A stretch of DNA of 64,000 bases from Methanofastidiosum sp. (GCA_020854815.1 JAHKLW010000005.1:7422-71421), one strand, 5' to 3'; counted from the first letter of the stretch, positions 26,865 to 36,724 are shown. Made by a program: numbers and translations. The notes: generated by a model not told the origin, from the sequence alone.

Positions 26865-28352
26865 TTGTCCTATGAACTTATACGTACTACTGACTCAATA
26901 TGTCCGATATGCCAAAAAAGAATTAAAGCAGATATCAAAGAAGTTCAAGGACAAATCCTAATGGAAAAGGAATGCCCTGACCATGGTTTTTTCTCAGACG
27001 CTCTTTCAGATGACCCTGAATATTACAAAAGATTAGATCGACTTGACCAAGTTGCAGAAAATTCTGTTATGAAAACAAAAAACAAAAATAAAGGATGCCC
27101 TTATGATTGCGGCTTGTGTGAGGATCATTTGACCCCATCGATTTTTGTTAATATTGATTTGACAAATAGGTGCAATATGAGTTGTCCAGTGTGCTTTGCA
27201 AGTGCAGGTGCAACTAAAAAATTGTACGAGCCTTCCTTTGAAGAAATTAGAAAAATACTTGAAAGCATGACTTCAATAAAACCAAATCCTCCATTTGCAA
27301 TACAATTTTCAGGTGGCGAACCGACATTAAGAAATGACCTGCCAGAATTAATTCAAACTGCAAAAACTTTAGGAATCTCACAGATTCAAGTTGCAACAAA
27401 TGGAAAGAGATTTTCTAAAGACCCCGAGTACTTAAAAAAAGTCATTGATGCCGGTATAAACACTTACTATCTTCAATTTGACGGATTAAACCCTGCTTCA
27501 TATATCAAATTCCGTGGATATGACACTTTTCCGGAAAAGAAAAAAGCTATAGAAAATCTAAGAAGTTTTGGGGAAACTAGTCTTGTTCTTGTTCCCACTG
27601 TTTCAAAAGGCGTAAATGATCAAGAACTTGGTGACATAATATATTTTGGGCGAGACAATTTTGATGTTATTAGAGGGATTAACTTTCAACCTCTTTCCTT
27701 TTCTGGCCGCGCAAGAAAGGAAGAAATGAAAAATTCCAGGATAACGATAACAGATCTAGTAAGACTTATAGAAGATCAAACAGATGGAGAAATCGGAAAA
27801 GAAGACTTTTACCCAATTCCATTTGTAGTTCCTGTATCCAAGTTTGTTGAATCTTTGAAAGGGGCAGATATGCCTCATTTTTCAACACACCCGCAATGTG
27901 GTGTTGCAACATACGTGTTTGTAAAAGATGGAAAGATAATACCAATTACTCGATTTGTGGATGTTGAAGGGTTCTTTGAGTACCTTAAAGAGAGAAATCA
28001 AAGTATAAACTGTGCGGGAAGAATAAGAAAAAGTATTGAGATATCTAAAATCTTAAAGGATATGAGATCTTTTATTGATAATGAAAAAATGCCAAAAGAT
28101 TTCAATCTTTTAGAAATTACAAAGGGCATTTTAAATGGCGGAGGTAAGGAATACCTTGCAAAACTTCACCATAAGTCACTATTTATTGGGACTATGCACT
28201 TTATGGACCCCTTTAACTTTGATTTAGATAGGGTAAAAAGGTGTGCAATACACTACGCCCTGCCTGACGGCACATTTATCCCTTTTTGCAGTTACAATTC
28301 GATTCATAGGGAAACTATCGAGAAACGGCTAACTACGCCAATTGACGAATAG
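26865..28352 (+). CDS. Radical SAM enzyme, tetraether lipid synthase (Tes / GDGT-MAS, COG1964)-like
   Basis: The tracked start is TTG. The N-terminus has a Cys/His knuckle (CPICQ...ECPDHG), followed by GCPYDCGLCEDH, the radical SAM CNMSCPVC motif, and C-terminal Cys residues (RCAIHY...FCSYN). Family assignment is from recalled motif order. Confidence 0.55.
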   Translation: MSYELIRTTDSICPICQKRIKADIKEVQGQILMEKECPDHGFFSDALSDDPEYYKRLDRLDQVAENSVMKTKNKNKGCPYDCGLCEDHLTPSIFVNIDLTNRCNMSCPVCFASAGATKKLYEPSFEEIRKILESMTSIKPNPPFAIQFSGGEPTLRNDLPELIQTAKTLGISQIQVATNGKRFSKDPEYLKKVIDAGINTYYLQFDGLNPASYIKFRGYDTFPEKKKAIENLRSFGETSLVLVPTVSKGVNDQELGDIIYFGRDNFDVIRGINFQPLSFSGRARKEEMKNSRITITDLVRLIEDQTDGEIGKEDFYPIPFVVPVSKFVESLKGADMPHFSTHPQCGVATYVFVKDGKIIPITRFVDVEGFFEYLKERNQSINCAGRIRKSIEISKILKDMRSFIDNEKMPKDFNLLEITKGILNGGGKEYLAKLHHKSLFIGTMHFMDPFNFDLDRVKRCAIHYALPDGTFIPFCSYNSIHRETIEKRLTTPIDE

Positions 28353-28406: not shown

Positions 28407-29369
28407 ATGAAAAAAGCAAGTATTGTATTCGCCCTGATATTTTTAATTTCAGTTGCTACATTCTCAGGGTGTATTTCACAGAAAGAAGAAAATGGTACAG
28501 ATGTTAATACGACGCCGGTGCAAACTGGCAAAACAGTATCCTATCTTAAGGCTAGAATTAATATTTCACAGCCATATGATCTTTCAGATTTAAATTCATC
28601 ACGACAAAAAGTCGTCATAATTAGGGACAGTGGTATTAGACTTGAAGCAATAGTCACATTGTATGGTGAAACCTATCCATTTGACGATACTGTCAGGATA
28701 CCTATTGTAGAAACAGAAGAAGATGCAGTAAAAGTTCTCAATAGCTTCCCAGATGACGTTTTACCCTATGTTATAGGAATGGAATTAGATGAAGGGATAT
28801 GGGGAACTGGAACGGTCCACTGGACTGAACATATGCGTAACAATATTGCATTGAGATATGCAAAAGAAGACGCAGATTATAACTTATATGGAACCGCCTT
28901 CTTAATAATGAAAGACCAAAGAGACAGAATTAGAGTTGATGAAAGTCCATATTTAAATATGGGTTATGAGTACTGGTGGATGCAAGGTGCTACTGAAACT
29001 CTATCTACAAGTAAAGCATTGGGTTTTGGCCCTTACACGACACTATATGCTTCACTAATGAGGTCTATGATGGTCCCAACAAAAGTAGTATACGGACTTT
29101 ACTATGACTTGGAAGAGGGAGGTATATGGAAACCATACTCTTGGAATGAACTATACTTTAACGGGAGATGGGTACCTGTTGATCCCTATAGGCAGCAGAT
29201 AGGCACTTTATCAAGATACTACTTGACATTAGACAAGACTGTAGACCTACTAGAACTCAATAATGATTTTGCTTGTTATAGAAGCGATTTAGAAGGAAAA
29301 GGTTGTAAACCTTTCATGATAGAGATTCTAGAGCAGGGAACAGTTTTAGAAAGTGAAATCAACAACTAA
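28407..29369 (+). CDS. Lipoprotein-like secreted protein with a degenerate transglutaminase-like core
   Basis: It has a signal sequence and a lipobox-like FSGC. GPYTTLYASLMRSMMVPTKVVYG...YSWNELYFNGRWVPVDP aligns with the TGase-core pattern G.C..FA...R..GIPAR.V.G...HAW.EVY..G.W...DP, but the Cys and His positions are not conserved. Confidence 0.5.
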   Translation: MKKASIVFALIFLISVATFSGCISQKEENGTDVNTTPVQTGKTVSYLKARINISQPYDLSDLNSSRQKVVIIRDSGIRLEAIVTLYGETYPFDDTVRIPIVETEEDAVKVLNSFPDDVLPYVIGMELDEGIWGTGTVHWTEHMRNNIALRYAKEDADYNLYGTAFLIMKDQRDRIRVDESPYLNMGYEYWWMQGATETLSTSKALGFGPYTTLYASLMRSMMVPTKVVYGLYYDLEEGGIWKPYSWNELYFNGRWVPVDPYRQQIGTLSRYYLTLDKTVDLLELNNDFACYRSDLEGKGCKPFMIEILEQGTVLESEINN

Positions 29370-29377
29370 AATCTTTT

Positions 29378-30592
29378 TTAATTTAAATATTTCTTTATTA
29401 TATCAACAATTTTTTCGGCGAGTTTTTCTTTATCATCTAGAGGTAAGTGGAACACCTTTTTTGTTTTGTCTATGATAAAGACTTCATTTGTTTTAGACTC
29501 AAATCCCCTCATTTCTTTTCCAACATCATTTGCAACGATTAAATCCATATTAGAGCTTTGGAGCCTGTCATATGCCTTTCGTATAAGCTGATCTTCTGAA
29601 ACGGAATATTCTGCTTTAAATCCAACTATAAAGGACTTTGAAACTTTTGAAAACTCTTCTATTATTTTTCTGTTTGGGGAGAGCGTAATATTAAAAGGTT
29701 GATTTGAAGAAATCTTTCCAGATGCACAATTATCAACGTGGAAATCAGATGTTGCGGCTGCAAAAAGGGCTAGGTCCACTTCTTTATTTGAGATGACGGC
29801 ATTTAACATCTCTTCATAAGTTTCAACTTGATGAGTTTTTACACAGGAACTCAATTGAGTAGGCCCTAAAATTAAAGTTACTTCGGCCCCCCTCATATCA
29901 AACTCTTCAGCCAATTTTATTCCCATTAATCCACTACTTTTATTTGTGATAAATCTAACATCATCAATCTTCTCAATTGTAGGGCCTGCTGTTACCAAAA
30001 CTTTTTTGCCATGAAAATCTTTGACATATAATTTTTTTATCACTGCTGTTACAATGTCATCGATTTCAGGAAGCTTTGCCTTGTTTTCTTCGAATTTCGG
30101 GGTGAGAAATTCAATGCCATATTTTTTTAGCTTTTCAATATTTTCAAGAATGATAGGATTCCTATACATTGAGCTATGCATAGCGGGAACTATGATAATC
30201 GGAATTTTGCCTAATCCCGTGGATACAACTGTTGTGACGGGTGTATCATCGATTCCGGATACTATCTTTGAAATTGTGTTTGCTGTTGAGGGTGCTATAA
30301 GAATTAAATCACATCTCTTATCGTGTTCTCCAGCATAAGAAACATGCTCTATCTTGCCAGTTATTTCATCAACAACTGGATTTCCAGTGCCAAACTCAAG
30401 CGCGTATGGGTGGATTATCTTTTTTGCATCTTGACTCATGACGACGTATACCTCTGCCCCATGCCTCATGAGCTCTCTAGATAGTTTAACTGATTCAACT
30501 GCGGCAATACTCCCAGTAATGCCCAACACAATCCCTTTTCCAGCCAACTTACTTGACTTACTCCCCTTTATCGACTTTCTATGCATCATCAT
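29378..30592 (-). CDS. coaBC: Bifunctional phosphopantothenoylcysteine decarboxylase / synthetase
   Basis: The N-terminal flavoprotein domain (GITGSIAAVE) is followed by a C-terminal CoaB domain (VLVTAGPT...ITNKSSG). Size is 404 aa. Confidence 0.9.
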   Translation of the reverse strand: MMMHRKSIKGSKSSKLAGKGIVLGITGSIAAVESVKLSRELMRHGAEVYVVMSQDAKKIIHPYALEFGTGNPVVDEITGKIEHVSYAGEHDKRCDLILIAPSTANTISKIVSGIDDTPVTTVVSTGLGKIPIIIVPAMHSSMYRNPIILENIEKLKKYGIEFLTPKFEENKAKLPEIDDIVTAVIKKLYVKDFHGKKVLVTAGPTIEKIDDVRFITNKSSGLMGIKLAEEFDMRGAEVTLILGPTQLSSCVKTHQVETYEEMLNAVISNKEVDLALFAAATSDFHVDNCASGKISSNQPFNITLSPNRKIIEEFSKVSKSFIVGFKAEYSVSEDQLIRKAYDRLQSSNMDLIVANDVGKEMRGFESKTNEVFIIDKTKKVFHLPLDDKEKLAEKIVDIIKKYLN

Positions 30593-30649
30593 AGAAATAG
30601 CCTAAATCTTTATAAAAATTGTTATTATGCAGATTAAATAGGTGAGTAA

Positions 30650-31183
30650 ATGACTAATAATCTCTTAGTATATGACACAAAATATGGATCAACTGAGGTA
30701 ATAGCGAGATGGATATCTGAGGAAATAAAAAATATTGTCGTTAAAAAACCGTCAGAAGTAAGTTCTATTGACGAGTACCCATTGATAATTATAGGTTCGC
30801 CCGATTACGATGATAAGCCTCTGAAAAGTATAAGTGAATTTATAGAAAAATTCAATAAGGAACTAAAGCAAAAGAAGATAGCAATTTTTGTCGTGTGTAA
30901 TGATATCGAGGAAAATGAATATCAAGGTAAACAAATAGGCGGCAAGTTCAATCTTGAGATACTGAAAAGGGAACTTCCAAAGGAAAATATCATCTTAGAG
31001 GAAGTATTGGGTGGAGTATTCAATCCTAAAATCCTTGACGAGCAAGATCAGGAAAGAATAGTGAACTTCTTTAAAGAAATTGGCAAGCCAATTAGGAAAG
31101 AAGATCTAGTTTTCATGCCAGTGTTGAATAAACTTGATAAAGACAAATGCAAACAGTTTATCAGTAAGCTTAAGGCAGTATAA
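30650..31183 (+). CDS. Flavodoxin-like domain protein
   Basis: LLVYDTKYGSTEVIARWISEEI matches the flavodoxin FMN-loop pattern. Size is 177 aa. Confidence 0.6.
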   Translation: MTNNLLVYDTKYGSTEVIARWISEEIKNIVVKKPSEVSSIDEYPLIIIGSPDYDDKPLKSISEFIEKFNKELKQKKIAIFVVCNDIEENEYQGKQIGGKFNLEILKRELPKENIILEEVLGGVFNPKILDEQDQERIVNFFKEIGKPIRKEDLVFMPVLNKLDKDKCKQFISKLKAV

Positions 31184-31192
31184 AGGCGTTTT

Positions 31193-32074
31193 ATGTACAG
31201 TTCAGAATGCTATGTTCCTTCACATATAACTGGCTTTTTTGTCCCCTTCTTTAGTGATGACTGTTTGAAAACAGGCTCAACTGGTACAGGGGTATCGCTT
31301 TCTTTGGGCGTCAATACTAAAATTAATGTGATGGAAGGTAGAGGCTCAGTTGACATCTATCTAAATGGCACTAAGAAGAATAGTGCACCGGTGTCATTGA
31401 ACTGTATAAATTTAGTTAAAAAAAAATATCTCAAATATTTTACCAATAAAGATATATTGATACAGCATGAAAGTGATGTTCCGGTTGAATCTGGATTTGG
31501 GGCATCTGCCTCAGCTGCCCTTGGAATATGTTTTTCAATTAAAGATATGATAAAAATGTCTCCTGAAGAATGTATAAAAATTGCACATGAAACTGAAGTT
31601 AATACACTAGGTGGTCTTGGAGATGTAGTGGCCGAGGTAAAGGGGGGTATTGAGATAAGGAAATCCCCGGGTGTAGATGGAGAAATCGAAAATATACCTT
31701 CAAACGGTCTAAAAGTAATTGCAATAAGCCTTGGTATGAAAAAGACGGAAAGTGTCTTAAAAAATCCTGAAAAGGTCAAGATAATTGAAAAATGTGGAGC
31801 TAAATTATTAAAGAAACTTATCAGTGAGCCCACTGTTGAAAGGATGATGGAGTGCTCAAAGAAATTCACATATTCAACTGGGATTATGCCCAAAGAAATT
31901 CTGGATTTAATCGAAATAGTTAGTGAGATTAATAGTTTCAATGCTTCAGGCATTATGATCGGAGAAGGAGTATTCACATTTATTAATGAAGAAGATGAAA
32001 AAAAAGTATTGGAAAGTTTAATAGACATTAAAGGAGACTTTATTGTCTCCCCAATAGCATTAGGATTATTATAG
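31193..32074 (+). CDS. Pantoate kinase (archaeal GHMP-family, COG1829)
   Basis: VPSHITGFF and the GHMP motif ESGFGASASAALG are present. It sits directly upstream of phosphopantothenate synthetase. Confidence 0.8.
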   Translation: MYSSECYVPSHITGFFVPFFSDDCLKTGSTGTGVSLSLGVNTKINVMEGRGSVDIYLNGTKKNSAPVSLNCINLVKKKYLKYFTNKDILIQHESDVPVESGFGASASAALGICFSIKDMIKMSPEECIKIAHETEVNTLGGLGDVVAEVKGGIEIRKSPGVDGEIENIPSNGLKVIAISLGMKKTESVLKNPEKVKIIEKCGAKLLKKLISEPTVERMMECSKKFTYSTGIMPKEILDLIEIVSEINSFNASGIMIGEGVFTFINEEDEKKVLESLIDIKGDFIVSPIALGLL

Positions 32075-32842
32075 GTGCTACAGATGGATATATCCGAAAA
32101 TCATCCACGTTATGAGTCTCTTATATTGAGAGAGAAGGTAAAAGACTGCCTTAAGGATGGAGTTCTTTCAGAAGTTGGTATAGCGGCACATGGTAGAGGA
32201 GAGGCTTTTGACTACTTTTTAGGAGAAAAAACTACCTTGGCAGCTGAGAAGTCAATAAAAGCGGCCGCTATTATGTTGTGTAGAGCAAAAAAACCAGTTG
32301 TATCTGTCAATGGAAACATTGCATGCCTCGTTCCAAATGAAGTTGTAGAGCTATCAAAGATTTTACCTTTGAAGATAGAAATCAATCTGTTTTACAGGAC
32401 ACTTGAAAGAGAGATTAAGATTAAAGAAAGACTTGAAAAATACGGTGCTATAGATATTCTGGGTGTTGGGAATAACGCAACTGAGACTATACCAGGTCTT
32501 GATTCGCCAAGGGGTAAAGTTTCTAAAGAGGGCATCTTCACTTCTGACGTATTACTTGTACCTTTAGAAGACGGAGACCGGGCTTTGGCACTTAAAAAAA
32601 TGGGGAAAAAGATTATAGCAATTGATCTAAATCCGCTATCAAGGACTTCCTTATGCTCCGATATAACAATAGTTGATAATGTTGTTAGGGCAATGCCCAG
32701 ACTTATTCAAGAGATAAAGAAATTTAAAGATAAAGATATTAAAGAAGATCTGGTATTTGACAATAATGAGAATACTAAGAAATCAATTCAAATAATGAGA
32801 AATAATCTTCATAGTTGGGAAGAAAAAATTAATGAAAGGTGA
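32075..32842 (+). CDS. Phosphopantothenate synthetase (4-phosphopantoate--beta-alanine ligase, COG1701)
   Basis: HPRYESLILREKV...AHGRGEAFDYFLGEKT is the characteristic archaeal PPS N-terminus. The start is GTG at 32075 or ATG at 32084. Confidence 0.8.
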   Translation: MLQMDISENHPRYESLILREKVKDCLKDGVLSEVGIAAHGRGEAFDYFLGEKTTLAAEKSIKAAAIMLCRAKKPVVSVNGNIACLVPNEVVELSKILPLKIEINLFYRTLEREIKIKERLEKYGAIDILGVGNNATETIPGLDSPRGKVSKEGIFTSDVLLVPLEDGDRALALKKMGKKIIAIDLNPLSRTSLCSDITIVDNVVRAMPRLIQEIKKFKDKDIKEDLVFDNNENTKKSIQIMRNNLHSWEEKINER

Positions 32843-34142
32843 TTCTATTAGTAAAATAATCCTTCAACTTGCACTAGATATATTGAATCTTGATAGGGCT
32901 ATTTCTATGACAAAAGAAGCCATTGGCGGAGGAGTTGACTGGATTGAAGCCGGGACGCCTCTGATAAAAAGTGAAGGGATGGAAGCCCTAAGAGAACTAA
33001 AGCATATTTTTCCAGATAAGAAGATAATTGCAGATATGAAGACTATGGACACAGGTGATTTTGAAACTGAGATGGCATCAAAAGCCGGCGCCGACATAGT
33101 CTCAATCTTGGGGGCTTCGGATGACAGCACAATAAAAGAAGCAATTAAAGCCGCTAAGAAGTATAATTCTGAAATTATGATTGACTTGATCAATGTCAAA
33201 AACAAAGTGGATAGGGCGGCTGAAGTTCAGAAAATGGGTGCAAAATATGTCTGTATTCACGTTGGAATTGACCAGCAGATGAAGGGAGAAAATCCATTGC
33301 AGGATATAAAAGATGTAAAAGAGGCGGTGAATATTACTATTGCAACTGCAGGTGGATTGAATTCTGAGAACATCCCTGATGTAGTTTCTGCAGGGGCCGA
33401 TATAGTTATTGTTGGTGGCGCCATTACAAAAGCTTCTGACCTTCTCGAGGCTACAAAAAGAATCAGAAAGAGTATTGACCTTGCAAAACCTATTGAAAGT
33501 ATAGAATTTAGAAAATACAAAAGAGAAGAGCTTATTGATGCCTTAAAAAAAGTCTCATCTTCAAACGTCTCAGACGCCATGCATAGGGGTGGCGCGATGA
33601 AAGGCATACATACAGTTGTGCCTGGACTTAAGATGGCAGGAAAAGCATTAACTGTTAAGACTATGAACGGAGACTGGGCAAAGGTCGTTGAAGCGATAGA
33701 TTTGGCAGAGAAAGGAGACATTCTAGTGATAGATACAAATTGTGGTAATATAGCTGTTTGGGGAGAGCTTGCAACTTGGAGTTCTGTTACGAGAGGACTT
33801 GGAGGGATTGTTGTAGATGGTGCAGTTAGGGATATTGATGACCTAAAAGAAATTCGTTTTCCAGTGTTTGCAAGATATGAAGTTCCTGATGCAGGAGACC
33901 CAAAAGGATTTGGAGAGATAGGGTGTGAAGTTATATGTGGTGGCCTTAAAGTAAACAAAGGAGACTATATAATAGGAGATGACAGTGGAGTTGTTGTAAT
34001 CCCTCAAGAAGATGCGCAAGAGATAATAAACAGAAGCCTTGATGTTAAAGAAAAGGAGAACAGAATAAGGGAAGAGATAAAGAGAGGGTCCACTCTATCA
34101 AAAGTTCTAAAACTTAAAAAATGGGAAAAAATTGTAGGATAA
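32832..34142 (+). CDS. Fusion protein: 3-hexulose-6-phosphate synthase (OMPDC-fold) domain + RraA-like (class II aldolase/decarboxylase fold) domain
   Basis: The N-terminal half has LQLALD...DWIEAGTPLIKSEG...KIIADMKTMDTG, an HPS signature. The C-terminal half has GELATWSSVTRGLGGIVVDGAVRD, an RraA/DMK-methyltransferase-like signature. It overlaps the PPS gene by 11 nt. Confidence 0.8.
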   Translation: MKGDSISKIILQLALDILNLDRAISMTKEAIGGGVDWIEAGTPLIKSEGMEALRELKHIFPDKKIIADMKTMDTGDFETEMASKAGADIVSILGASDDSTIKEAIKAAKKYNSEIMIDLINVKNKVDRAAEVQKMGAKYVCIHVGIDQQMKGENPLQDIKDVKEAVNITIATAGGLNSENIPDVVSAGADIVIVGGAITKASDLLEATKRIRKSIDLAKPIESIEFRKYKREELIDALKKVSSSNVSDAMHRGGAMKGIHTVVPGLKMAGKALTVKTMNGDWAKVVEAIDLAEKGDILVIDTNCGNIAVWGELATWSSVTRGLGGIVVDGAVRDIDDLKEIRFPVFARYEVPDAGDPKGFGEIGCEVICGGLKVNKGDYIIGDDSGVVVIPQEDAQEIINRSLDVKEKENRIREEIKRGSTLSKVLKLKKWEKIVG

Positions 34143-34187
34143 TTTTTATCTGACGAAATATTTATAAATAATATATTTCTTTATGAC

Positions 34188-34204
34188 ATATCATTATATG
34201 ATAT
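34188..34204. promoter_or_regulatory. 17-bp palindrome ATATCAT-TAT-ATGATAT immediately upstream of the PadR gene (candidate operator)
   Basis: It is a perfect 7-bp inverted repeat with a 3-bp spacer, ending 13 nt before the ATG at 34217. Confidence 0.4.
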
Positions 34205-34216
34205 ATCGGTGCCTAT

Positions 34217-34564
34217 ATGACATTTAGACAAATTCACAATAGGTTTCATTATTTCCACATTTTGGATACATTCGGCCTTTGGTTATTCAGCAAGAAAGAG
34301 CTATGCGGTTACGACATAATAAAAGAGTTTGAAATTAGGTCGAAAGGTACTTGGAAACCTTCTCCGGCATTAATTTATCCTAAAATATTAATATGGATAT
34401 CAGAAGGATTAATTGAAGAAACAAACAAAGGAACGAGGGGTAAAAAATATTATAAAATTACTCCAAAGGGTAATATAAAACTAAATGAGAATATGGGCAA
34501 TCTAAAAAGAGATCTCCTAGATTATGAGGATTTTCTGGGGGAAGTTTTTGAGGTGGATAAATGA
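34217..34564 (+). CDS. PadR family transcriptional regulator
   Basis: CGYDIIKEFEIRSKGTWKPSPALIYPKILIWISEGLIEE...KKYYKITPKG matches the PadR wHTH pattern. Confidence 0.75.
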   Translation: MTFRQIHNRFHYFHILDTFGLWLFSKKELCGYDIIKEFEIRSKGTWKPSPALIYPKILIWISEGLIEETNKGTRGKKYYKITPKGNIKLNENMGNLKRDLLDYEDFLGEVFEVDK

Positions 34565-35643
34565 AAGAGCTAAGAGACACTCTATTTGGAAAACTTGGAC
34601 TTATTGAATACAAGTACAGTAAGATTATAGTGGCCTCAATGTTACTGATAACTATTTTTTTATCATTTGGTGTATTAAACTTAAAGTTTGAATCGGATTT
34701 CATGAAAGAACTTCCCCAAAACTTTGACGTTGTAAAGACTCAAAATCTCATTAACAGTGAATTTGGCGAAGAAGAAGGTATTATAATTCTATTGGAAACT
34801 GATTTTGATGTTGTAGATGACATAAGGAATAAACAAAGCCTTGAAAGTATATATCAACTTGAGAAAAGATTAAAATCCAGACCCGAGATAATTGATGTAA
34901 TTGGTCCTGGGACGGTCTATTATTCAATCTTTAGGGGAATTCCTTCAGATGACGTGGCATTGAGGGATGTGGCAAAGACTATACCAGGATTAATATCAAA
35001 AGATTATACGTCAGCCATAGTCATGGTCAGGATGAGTGGAGTAAGGAGCGAAGAGGAAATTCAAGCTGCAATTGACATAGTAGAAGAAGAAACTGAAAAA
35101 GTACAGTTGTATGGATTGAATTATACCATAACTGGATCCCCTGTGTTAAGTAAAACTATTCTTAAAGTTCTGAGAGAAGATTCAATGAAAACTATGGCCA
35201 TATCTGCAATAATTGTATTTATATTACTGAGTTTAATATTAAGATTCAAATCATTCTTTGTTATAATTCCACTTATTTGCGGAGTAGTCTGGACAGGAGG
35301 AATTCTATCTTATATTGGTATCCCAATAAGTCTCGTGACAACTAGCATTGGAGCCATTGTCATAGGTCTCGGTGCTGAATACGGGATATTTATGGTATTA
35401 CGTTACAACGAGGAGGCAAAAAAAGATAAGCCAAATGAAGAAAGAGTTGTGGCTATGGTTGCAGGTGTTGGCCGTGGTACAATAGGATCAAGTGTAACAA
35501 CAGTTGCTGGCTTTATGGCTCTAGCGCTTTCTTCAATGCCTATGATGGTCCATCTTGGAACTGCTTTATCTTTGGGAATAATAAGTTGTCTTATAGGAGC
35601 TTTAGTTTTTTTACCTTCAATTATGGCTTTGAGGGAGTGGTAA
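34561..35643 (+). CDS. RND-superfamily (MMPL-type) exporter, half-size subunit A
   Basis: The topology is one N-terminal TM, an extracytoplasmic domain of about 170 aa, then a 5-TM bundle. That equals one RND repeat. Size is 360 aa. Confidence 0.7.
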   Translation: MKELRDTLFGKLGLIEYKYSKIIVASMLLITIFLSFGVLNLKFESDFMKELPQNFDVVKTQNLINSEFGEEEGIIILLETDFDVVDDIRNKQSLESIYQLEKRLKSRPEIIDVIGPGTVYYSIFRGIPSDDVALRDVAKTIPGLISKDYTSAIVMVRMSGVRSEEEIQAAIDIVEEETEKVQLYGLNYTITGSPVLSKTILKVLREDSMKTMAISAIIVFILLSLILRFKSFFVIIPLICGVVWTGGILSYIGIPISLVTTSIGAIVIGLGAEYGIFMVLRYNEEAKKDKPNEERVVAMVAGVGRGTIGSSVTTVAGFMALALSSMPMMVHLGTALSLGIISCLIGALVFLPSIMALREW

Positions 35644-35644
35644 T

Positions 35645-36724
35645 ATGTCCCGTTACGATAAACTAATAAGAGATTTTTCAGATATTCATGGAAAAAATTC
35701 CAAGAGGCTTCTAATACTGTCATTTATTATAACAATAATTTTAGGATCTGGGATCTCCCTCATCAAGATAGAACAAGGAGATGATATGAGCCAGTTGCCC
35801 AATAATATTGAGGAGATTCAGGTGTTCATGAAGATGGAGGACAAGTTTGAAAGATATAACTCCATTATTGTTGTAATCAACTCAGAAAATATAGGCTCCC
35901 CAGACATCTTGAAGGAAGCTTATTTATTGAATCAAGAACTTATGAATGTCTATGGGATAGAAAGCTCTTCTTTTACTCTTAAACTAGATGAGATATATCT
36001 GCCAAAAGAAGAGCTAAAGAACAGGGTTGAAGTTTCAGATAATCTTGGATACATGCTGATAAGACTTAATGTCATTAAGGGCGTCGATAATATGAAGGTA
36101 TATGACGACGTGAAAGAAATAATCTCAAAAACTACATTGAATGTTCAGCCGGGAGGCGGCATAGCAATGGTTAAAGAACTTACAGACATAATCTTACCTG
36201 AGATGTCAAAGATATCTACATTTGGGATTATAGGAGTCTTACTTTGTGTTATACTGACATTCAGATCAATAAGATTTGGCATAATGCCTTTGATATGTGT
36301 TGGTGTGGGAATAGTATGGATGATGGGAATATCGGGATTTGCAGGAATTTCTTTAAGTTCTGAGTTAGTAGGAGTTATTTCAATGATGACCGGAATTGGA
36401 ATTGATTTCGCAATACAGACTATAAATAGATATAATCAAGAGCGTACTCCTATAATTTTAGAGAAAATAGTCAGGACTTTAGAAGGTGTTGTTGAGCCTA
36501 TAGTTGTTTCGTCTATTGTTGCAGGATTTGGATTCATTGCAATGCTTGCGGGGTCTTTATCCATACTTGATACGATGGGAAAGATGCTTTTCATAGGTGT
36601 ATTTAGCTGCATGGGGGTAACGCTTATATTTCTCCCATCGTTTTTAGTAGTTCAAGAAAAAATATTTGAAGATACAAAAAAATTAATTAAGAAGAAAATG
36701 GAGGCGTATAATGAAGAAAATTAG
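35645..36724 (+). CDS. RND-superfamily (MMPL-type) exporter, half-size subunit B
   Basis: It has the same 1+5 TM topology as subunit A. Its ATG starts 1 nt after the upstream stop. Size is 359 aa. Confidence 0.7.
   Translation: MSRYDKLIRDFSDIHGKNSKRLLILSFIITIILGSGISLIKIEQGDDMSQLPNNIEEIQVFMKMEDKFERYNSIIVVINSENIGSPDILKEAYLLNQELMNVYGIESSSFTLKLDEIYLPKEELKNRVEVSDNLGYMLIRLNVIKGVDNMKVYDDVKEIISKTTLNVQPGGGIAMVKELTDIILPEMSKISTFGIIGVLLCVILTFRSIRFGIMPLICVGVGIVWMMGISGFAGISLSSELVGVISMMTGIGIDFAIQTINRYNQERTPIILEKIVRTLEGVVEPIVVSSIVAGFGFIAMLAGSLSILDTMGKMLFIGVFSCMGVTLIFLPSFLVVQEKIFEDTKKLIKKKMEAYNEEN

Follow-up and report, generated by a model that had tools for sequence, protein, structure and literature searches.

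A 3-hexulose-6-phosphate synthase–RraA fusion in a coenzyme A gene cluster of Candidatus Methanofastidiosum as a candidate ketopantoate synthase

The gene cluster and its fusion protein

The stretch of DNA considered here (the window; 64,000 nucleotides, GCA_020854815.1 JAHKLW010000005.1:7422-71421) is part of one contig (C43) of a 1.95 Mb, 96.4% complete genome of Candidatus Methanofastidiosum, and it contains, amongst genes for coenzyme A (CoA) biosynthesis, a gene in which 3-hexulose-6-phosphate synthase (hereafter HPS) is fused to an RraA-like domain. A hole in the pathway, phyletic complementarity with PanB (ketopantoate hydroxymethyltransferase, EC 2.1.2.11, PF02548) and a shared operon slot together suggest that this fusion quite probably acts as a functional replacement for PanB, that is, as a folate-independent ketopantoate synthase. 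CoA is universal, yet pantoate synthesis begins with a committed step for which, to our knowledge, methanogens and many other archaea that lack PanB have no assigned gene.

Within the cluster, coaBC on the minus strand is divergent from a tight plus-strand run of four genes. Numbered from the first nucleotide of the window, the features are:

29378-30592, minus strand: coaBC, bifunctional phosphopantothenoylcysteine synthetase/decarboxylase (TIGR00521, 407.8 bits against a cut-off of 219.7; PF04127, PF02441)
30593-30649: divergent spacer of 57 bp, with a TATA-like box and a ribosome-binding site, read from the sequence
30650-31183, plus strand: flavodoxin-like protein, heading the plus-strand run (PF12724, 48 bits; Atlas cluster 'Flavodoxin_5')
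31193-32074, plus strand: pantoate kinase (PoK), GHMP kinase family (PF00288; the top NCBIfam matches, NF041122 and NF040725, are both under cut-off)
32075-32842, plus strand: phosphopantothenate synthetase (PPS) (PF02006, 216 bits; NF010324, 324 bits against a cut-off of 227)
32832-34142, plus strand: HPS-RraA-like fusion, 436 amino acids (NF005442, 632 bits against a cut-off of 593)
32862-33464, plus strand: HPS domain of the fusion (OMP-decarboxylase fold), residues 11-211 (PF00215; TIGR03128, 245 bits against a cut-off of 200)
33561-34139, plus strand: RraA-like domain of the fusion, resembling 4-hydroxy-4-methyl-2-oxoglutarate/4-carboxy-4-hydroxy-2-oxoadipate (HMG/CHA) aldolases (PF03737, 146 bits; Pfam core residues 244-389)

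These profile matches place the five genes just as the original prediction, made from the sequence alone, had placed them, and its 11-nt overlap between fusion and PPS is borne out on reading the sequence, the ATG of the fusion lying at 32832 and the TGA of PPS at 32840-32842. There is no gap between PoK and PPS, while 9 nt separate the flavodoxin-like gene from PoK. In the divergent spacer, a TATA-like box, TTTATAAAA (at about 30609-30618), suggests a promoter, and an AGGTGA ribosome-binding site precedes the flavodoxin-like gene (both by direct reading); a scan of 29000-34700 for bacterial-type terminators gave none, which has little meaning for an archaeon. The five-gene layout recurs identically in two further genomes of the genus (L170 and L177), PPS directly adjoins the fusion in all 14 sampled genomes of the genus, and PoK consistently has PPS close by.

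The fusion belongs to a family already described and named, NF005442 (PRK07028, 'bifunctional hexulose-6-phosphate synthase/ribonuclease regulator'), which has the same two-domain architecture over its full length; the match (632.1 bits) covers profile positions 3-428 with residues 8-433, and a single reading frame, uninterrupted by any stop codon over the matched region, encodes both domains. Its closest relatives, at 95% identity, are from Candidatus Methanofastidiosum, and identity falls to about 55% for a homologue from Methanospirillum (L050). To the same family belongs Mhun0647, the 'HPS-MenG' of Methanospirillum hungatei, for which HPS activity has been measured (PMC5241800); the Methanospirillum gene lies outside any CoA operon, whereas that of Methanofastidiosum lies inside one. 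In a phylogeny of the fusions, which is a quick tree only, the bacterial fusions form one group and the cluster-embedded fusions of TACK and Asgard archaea another, while the fusion of the window groups weakly with those of Thermoplasmata (SH-aLRT 88). An AlphaFold2 model of the protein is confident throughout (pLDDT 95, pTM 0.87).

For the HPS domain, the closest solved structure is the HPS-PHI fusion of Thermococcales, the sister order of Methanofastidiosum (PDB 9lj9, 1e-68; for 3ajx the value is 9e-48), and for 3ajx and 3f4w Foldseek gives TM scores, by target length, of 0.94-0.95. Across 71 fusions there is no variation at E39, D68, K70, D73 and H143, and this set fits the metal-binding and catalytic pattern of HPS and KGPDC in the OMPDC suprafamily (Glu, Asp-x-Lys-x-x-Asp, His), so that the N-terminal half is predicted to be a complete HPS. 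In the Thermococcales protein the partner domain is an isomerase, and its carriers keep PanB (88 of 91).

The RraA-like domain continues beyond its Pfam core, to residue 436, as a C-terminal helical extension of the kind that HMG/CHA aldolases have and short RraA proteins lack. Its matches in the PDB are 3k4i (2e-24), an uncharacterised homologue, and 3noj (1e-22), the HMG/CHA aldolase LigK/PcmE, with which it has in common both the fold (Foldseek E 2e-17 and TM 0.82 for 3noj; range 0.82-0.88 by target length with 3k4i included) and an Arg-Asp pair: R333/D334, invariant in the 71 fusions, align with R123/D124 of 3noj, which we take to be the 2-oxoacid and Mg2+ ligands. What sets the fusion apart from LigK/PcmE is the attached HPS, a score below the equivalog cut-offs for LigK/HMG-CHA aldolase (TIGR02798, 101.3 against 304.5; NF006731, 116.3 against 179) and two invariant motifs, GDWAK (residues 280-284, in all 71 fusions) and AGEPKG, both of which are missing from 3noj, from 3k4i and from the genome's own free RraA-like paralogue. 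By analogy, then, the domain would work like LigK, yet it is not filed as LigK. Identification with RraA, the regulator of RNase E, which the family name implies in place of the role in pantoate synthesis proposed here, was rejected (NF006875, 62.9 against 136; TIGR02998, 41.9 against 241), RNase E being an enzyme of bacteria and the organism here an archaeon. The free-standing paralogue just mentioned, likewise HMG-CHA-aldolase-like (G000:C21:38053-38496; L005:1387-1962, minus strand), has 191 amino acids and is 35% identical to the domain in the fusion; it sits between a family III CoA-transferase and histidyl-tRNA synthetase, its orthologues in the sister family standing beside birA.

Distribution and gene neighbourhoods of the fusion and of PanB

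A normal panB gene would sit ill with the folate-independent route to ketopantoate that the original prediction had put forward as speculation; nothing matching PF02548 occurs anywhere in the 96.4%-complete genome, and PanB is likewise missing from all 14 genomes of the genus. The two other genes that it had singled out for a search are both there: PanE (TIGR00745, 286 bits) and Phi, 6-phospho-3-hexuloisomerase (TIGR03127, 188 bits against a cut-off of 160; G000:C11:16317-16874). With PanE present and PanB absent, ketopantoate is needed by PanE, yet it has no known source. IlvD, which would supply 2-oxoisovalerate, is encoded too, as are PoK, PPS, CoaBC, serine hydroxymethyltransferase and a transketolase subunit; the fusion is the genome's sole HPS, and Fae is absent from the genome.

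Four within-taxon samples, together comprising 554 genomes, were scored for the two genes:

Desulfobacteria (201 genomes): fusion without PanB, 11; both, 1; PanB without fusion, 178; neither, 11
Thermoplasmatota (151 genomes): fusion without PanB, 109; both, 1; PanB without fusion, 33; neither, 8
Own phylum of Methanofastidiosum (121 genomes): fusion without PanB, 14; both, 0; PanB without fusion, 88; neither, 19
Asgard (81 genomes): fusion without PanB, 10; both, 0; PanB without fusion, 56; neither, 15
Total (554 genomes): fusion without PanB, 144; both, 2; PanB without fusion, 355; neither, 53

Across these genomes, from four phyla, fusion and PanB are almost perfectly complementary. PanB is missing from 11/12 fusion-bearing as against 11/189 fusion-less genomes in Desulfobacteria, from 109/110 against 8/41 in Thermoplasmatota, from 14/14 against 19/107 in the phylum of Methanofastidiosum itself and from 10/10 against 15/71 in Asgard archaea; in a separate set of fusion-bearing genomes it is missing from 49 of 50. 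Fisher p values per sample range from 2e-6 to 1e-24, but they are overstated and should be read as descriptive only, related genomes not being independent. Control genomes behave in the same manner, in that PanB is missing from Methanosarcina acetivorans, where the fusion is present, and the fusion from Haloferax and Sulfolobus, where PanB is present. If attention is restricted to the Asgard genomes that carry PPS (n = 65), 54 carry PanB but no fusion, 9 the fusion but no PanB, 2 are without either and in no case are both present; PPS, too, is missing from 13 of the 15 Asgard genomes that lack both. All 12 fusion-bearing Desulfobacteria have PanC, from which it follows that pantoate is consumed, and hence needed, there.

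When 80 fusion loci from public genomes were scanned with profiles built from the genes of the window, the following arrangements (FUS denoting the fusion) were found:

L030, Hecatellales: PPS-FUS-PanE-CoaBC
L041, Nezhaarchaeales: CoaBC-PoK-FUS-PanE-PPS
L032, Asgard archaeon: PoK-PPS-FUS-PanE
L013: FUS-PanE

The fusion thus occurs in CoA clusters of differing gene order in Bathyarchaeia, Nezhaarchaeales, a Nitrososphaerota metagenome-assembled genome and Asgard archaea, which disposes of the other point raised by the original prediction, namely that co-localisation with CoA genes might be confined to this one cluster. Linkage of this kind is genuine and is seen repeatedly, in clusters that differ in order, though only a minority of loci show it. 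Four loci, of which two are from Thermoplasmata, have a pyridoxal phosphate (PLP)-dependent decarboxylase of the beta-alanine type adjoining the fusion; phi is the gene immediately upstream of the fusion in ten loci from bacteria.

A further 40 loci, chosen by their Asgard PPS genes, were fetched and annotated, and in ten of them PanB lies within the CoA cluster. Comparison of L142 and L032 (both PoK-PPS-FUSION-PanE) with L130 (PoK-PPS-PanB-PanE) shows that in Asgard CoA clusters fusion and PanB occupy one and the same slot, between PPS and PanE. In many Asgard loci (L131-L134, L138, L150 and L159-L164) there is a gap of 1.0-1.5 kb from CoaBC to PoK that was matched by none of the profiles used.

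Methanofastidiosales themselves provide what amounts to a natural experiment. In the genus Methanofastidiosum fusion and PPS are present together with PanE, which scores over cut-off in the genome of the window and in 5/5 others tested. The sister family f3 has no fusion, no PanB and PanE over cut-off in 0/5 genomes, and it retains PPS, in a cluster of CoaBC with PoK-PPS; families f2 and f4 have neither fusion nor PPS. In f3 the end of PPS shares 13 nt with a conserved gene for a multi-pass membrane protein of 177 amino acids (L172:8075-8608, plus strand; L171:7145-7651, minus strand; L173:5009-5509, minus strand). It has no match in Pfam, and falls among the S components of energy-coupling factor (ECF) transporters by Atlas feature search only (score 0.94), a likeness to be treated as a lead and not as proof; with that proviso, the protein may be a pantoate importer. 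PanE, in other words, appears to travel with the fusion, and where both are missing an importer of a precursor is likely to substitute for them.

A proposed route to ketopantoate and its competitors

The reading that best accommodates these observations is the folate-independent route suggested in the original prediction, to which PanB complementarity and the shared slot now lend support of a comparative kind. In its full form, held with slightly less assurance than the replacement of PanB as such, the proposal is that the fusion is probably a true ketopantoate synthase, independent of both folate and methanopterin, to which the one-carbon (C1) unit is delivered as formaldehyde from hexulose 6-phosphate (Hu6P) inside one protein. 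On that basis it would, with fair likelihood, be the missing first enzyme of pantoate and CoA synthesis in archaea without PanB and in some anaerobic bacteria, the archaea concerned being, as seems reasonably probable, Methanosarcinales, Methanomicrobiales, most Thermoplasmatota, Methanofastidiosum and some TACK and Asgard lineages. Presumably the reaction would be that of EC 4.1.2.12, the orphan activity called 'ketopantoaldolase'.

The steps envisaged are as follows. Phi, encoded elsewhere in the genome, would isomerise fructose 6-phosphate to 3-hexulose 6-phosphate, which the N-terminal HPS domain would split into ribulose 5-phosphate and formaldehyde; the RraA-fold domain, acting as a class II (Mg2+-dependent) 2-oxoacid aldolase of the HMG/CHA type, would then add 3-methyl-2-oxobutanoate, as its metal-bound enolate, to the formaldehyde to give 2-dehydropantoate (ketopantoate). 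PanE would reduce this to pantoate, and PoK, PPS (the two being, on this scheme, co-transcribed) and the divergently encoded CoaBC would take it further, to 4'-phosphopantetheine. A fusion of the two domains would keep free formaldehyde low and pull forward the unfavourable cleavage of Hu6P, much as Fae-HPS does for tetrahydromethanopterin (H4MPT). For the conversions by Phi and the HPS domain the grounds are the families to which these proteins belong and an assay already published for a homologue; comparative genomics, together with the chemistry that related aldolases carry out, is our basis for inferring the aldol reaction, the substrate it prefers and any channelling.

Compared with PanB, the fusion would make the same product from the same 2-oxoacid, again via an Mg2+-bound enolate, but with formaldehyde from Hu6P as C1 donor in place of methylene-tetrahydrofolate; there is no relationship between the two in sequence or fold (the Pfam domains of the fusion being PF00215 and PF03737), so that it is proposed as a functional analogue only. 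The Fae-HPS of methanogens (PMC5241800) follows the same logic, HPS being joined to an enzyme that captures its formaldehyde, but there the acceptor is tetrahydromethanopterin and the flux that of central carbon metabolism, whereas the partner in the present fusion is an aldolase and the acceptor proposed is a 2-oxoacid. That the chemistry is feasible is suggested by in vitro results for PanB and for the class II aldolase YfaU, both of which join 2-oxoacids to free formaldehyde (PMC10127515). The HPS activity reported for HPS-MenG of M. hungatei, at 0.21 U/mg beside 6.05 U/mg for Fae-HPS (Kono et al. 2017, PMC5241800), is low, in keeping with a fusion that serves biosynthesis at low flux. No paper tying the fusion to pantoate was found in the literature searched, most subscription journals lying outside the search; the proposed function would thus be new to that literature and would fill a long-standing gap in the pathway.

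Several points weigh against this proposal and need to be considered together. Two genomes (G015 and G249) contain both PanB and the fusion, while two Asgard genomes with PPS (G547 and G591) and seven Desulfobacteria with PanC (G103, G120, G146, G164, G201, G212 and G218) contain neither. Assembly gaps, salvage or some third solution could lie behind such exceptions, and genomes that have PPS or PanC and neither gene, those of family f3 included, imply that other solutions, such as pantoate salvage, do exist; variants of such salvage are known in bacteria (PMC6593275). The complementarity is also clade-structured, so that independent gains and losses are few. As to gene neighbourhoods, core CoA genes flank the fusion in only 4 of the 80 loci, with two more having the PLP decarboxylase only, and in Thermoplasmata, Methanosarcinales and Methanomicrobiales the neighbours are mostly unrelated to CoA. 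Since the scores against the LigK and HMG/CHA families fall below cut-off, the substrate cannot be read from family membership, and what the MenG-like second domain does was called unknown in the study of the M. hungatei protein (PMC5241800). Lastly, as the sole HPS of its genome the fusion may chiefly serve pentose synthesis, and there is then a stoichiometric mismatch, in that far more formaldehyde would be released by pentose synthesis than pantoate formation could require.

A different explanation, which we regard as unlikely, is that the protein is an ordinary enzyme of the ribulose monophosphate (RuMP) pathway: its HPS half together with Phi would make ribulose 5-phosphate or detoxify formaldehyde, its RraA-like half would be unrelated or regulatory (e.g. 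an oxaloacetate decarboxylase), its position behind PPS would be an accident of the genus, and hosts without PanB would salvage pantoate. The original prediction had offered a RuMP-pathway enzyme as its conservative reading, and as far as the HPS half is concerned this stands up well, given a sole HPS with Phi in the same genome and an activity actually measured in the M. hungatei homologue (PMC5241800); the lack of CoA neighbours at most fusion loci, the documented salvage variants (PMC6593275) and the apparent salvage of pantoate by family f3 all speak for it too. As an account of the whole protein it does less well, leaving the complementarity with PanB unexplained: 144 of the 146 fusion-bearing genomes are without PanB, as against 355 of 408 fusion-less genomes that have it, and exactly one of the two genes is found in 63 of the 65 Asgard genomes with PPS. 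Nor does it account for the slot common to fusion and PanB between PPS and PanE, or for the way in which PanE tracks the fusion within Methanofastidiosales. Bacteria with the phi-fusion pair, moreover, keep PanC without PanB, and presumably own a pentose phosphate pathway already, a presumption that we count against a purely RuMP-type role.

Demand for pentoses exceeds that for CoA by orders of magnitude, which would favour a general formaldehyde sink, whereby the RraA-like half adds HPS-derived formaldehyde to pyruvate or some other abundant 2-oxoacid (yielding, e.g., 4-hydroxy-2-oxobutanoate) so as to dispose of the formaldehyde from pentose synthesis in organisms without Fae, ketopantoate being at most a side product. 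Despite the absence of Fae from this genome, the use of pyruvate as nucleophile by HMG/CHA-type aldolases (the 3noj match) and the readiness of class II aldolases to take many 2-oxoacids with formaldehyde (PMC10127515), this is the least probable of the three explanations and seems improbable in absolute terms, as it offers no reason for the anti-correlation with PanB, the linkage to PoK, PPS and PanE or the co-occurrence with PanE, as M. hungatei and Methanosarcina keep the fusion beside Fae-HPS, which is already a formaldehyde trap, and as a transketolase subunit is present here, so that pentoses need not derive from HPS.

Should the fusion indeed prove to be a ketopantoate synthase, a gap in archaeal pantoate synthesis would be closed and the orphan activity EC 4.1.2.12 would acquire a gene. 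The family names 'ribonuclease regulator' and 'MenG', which would then be misleading, would be corrected, the presence in some methanogens of a second, low-activity HPS beside Fae-HPS would be explained, and calls of vitamin B5 auxotrophy in metabolic models of anaerobic communities would change. There would also be a naturally occurring enzyme in which C-C bonds are formed with bound formaldehyde drawn from a sugar phosphate.

Other genes in and around the cluster

The flavodoxin-like gene at the head of the plus-strand run is found in the CoA cluster of the genus Methanofastidiosum only (L170 and L177 being the other examples). It is absent from the clusters of the sister family (L171-L173) and from those of TACK and Asgard archaea, and no homologue of it was detectable beside the fusion in the 80 loci of other lineages.

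Upstream of coaBC lie the gene for tetraether lipid synthase Tes (26865-28352, plus strand; NF045702, 638 bits against a cut-off of 450) and, after it, one for a transglutaminase-like protein. Directly downstream of the fusion there is a PadR-type regulator, and then a resistance-nodulation-division (RND) transporter of the HAE3/MMPL family, the region as a whole extending over 34217-36724 (plus strand). The transporter consists of two adjacent open reading frames, 34561-35643 and 35645-36724, which match the first and last thirds of TIGR00921 respectively, and may represent either a split gene or a two-gene form.

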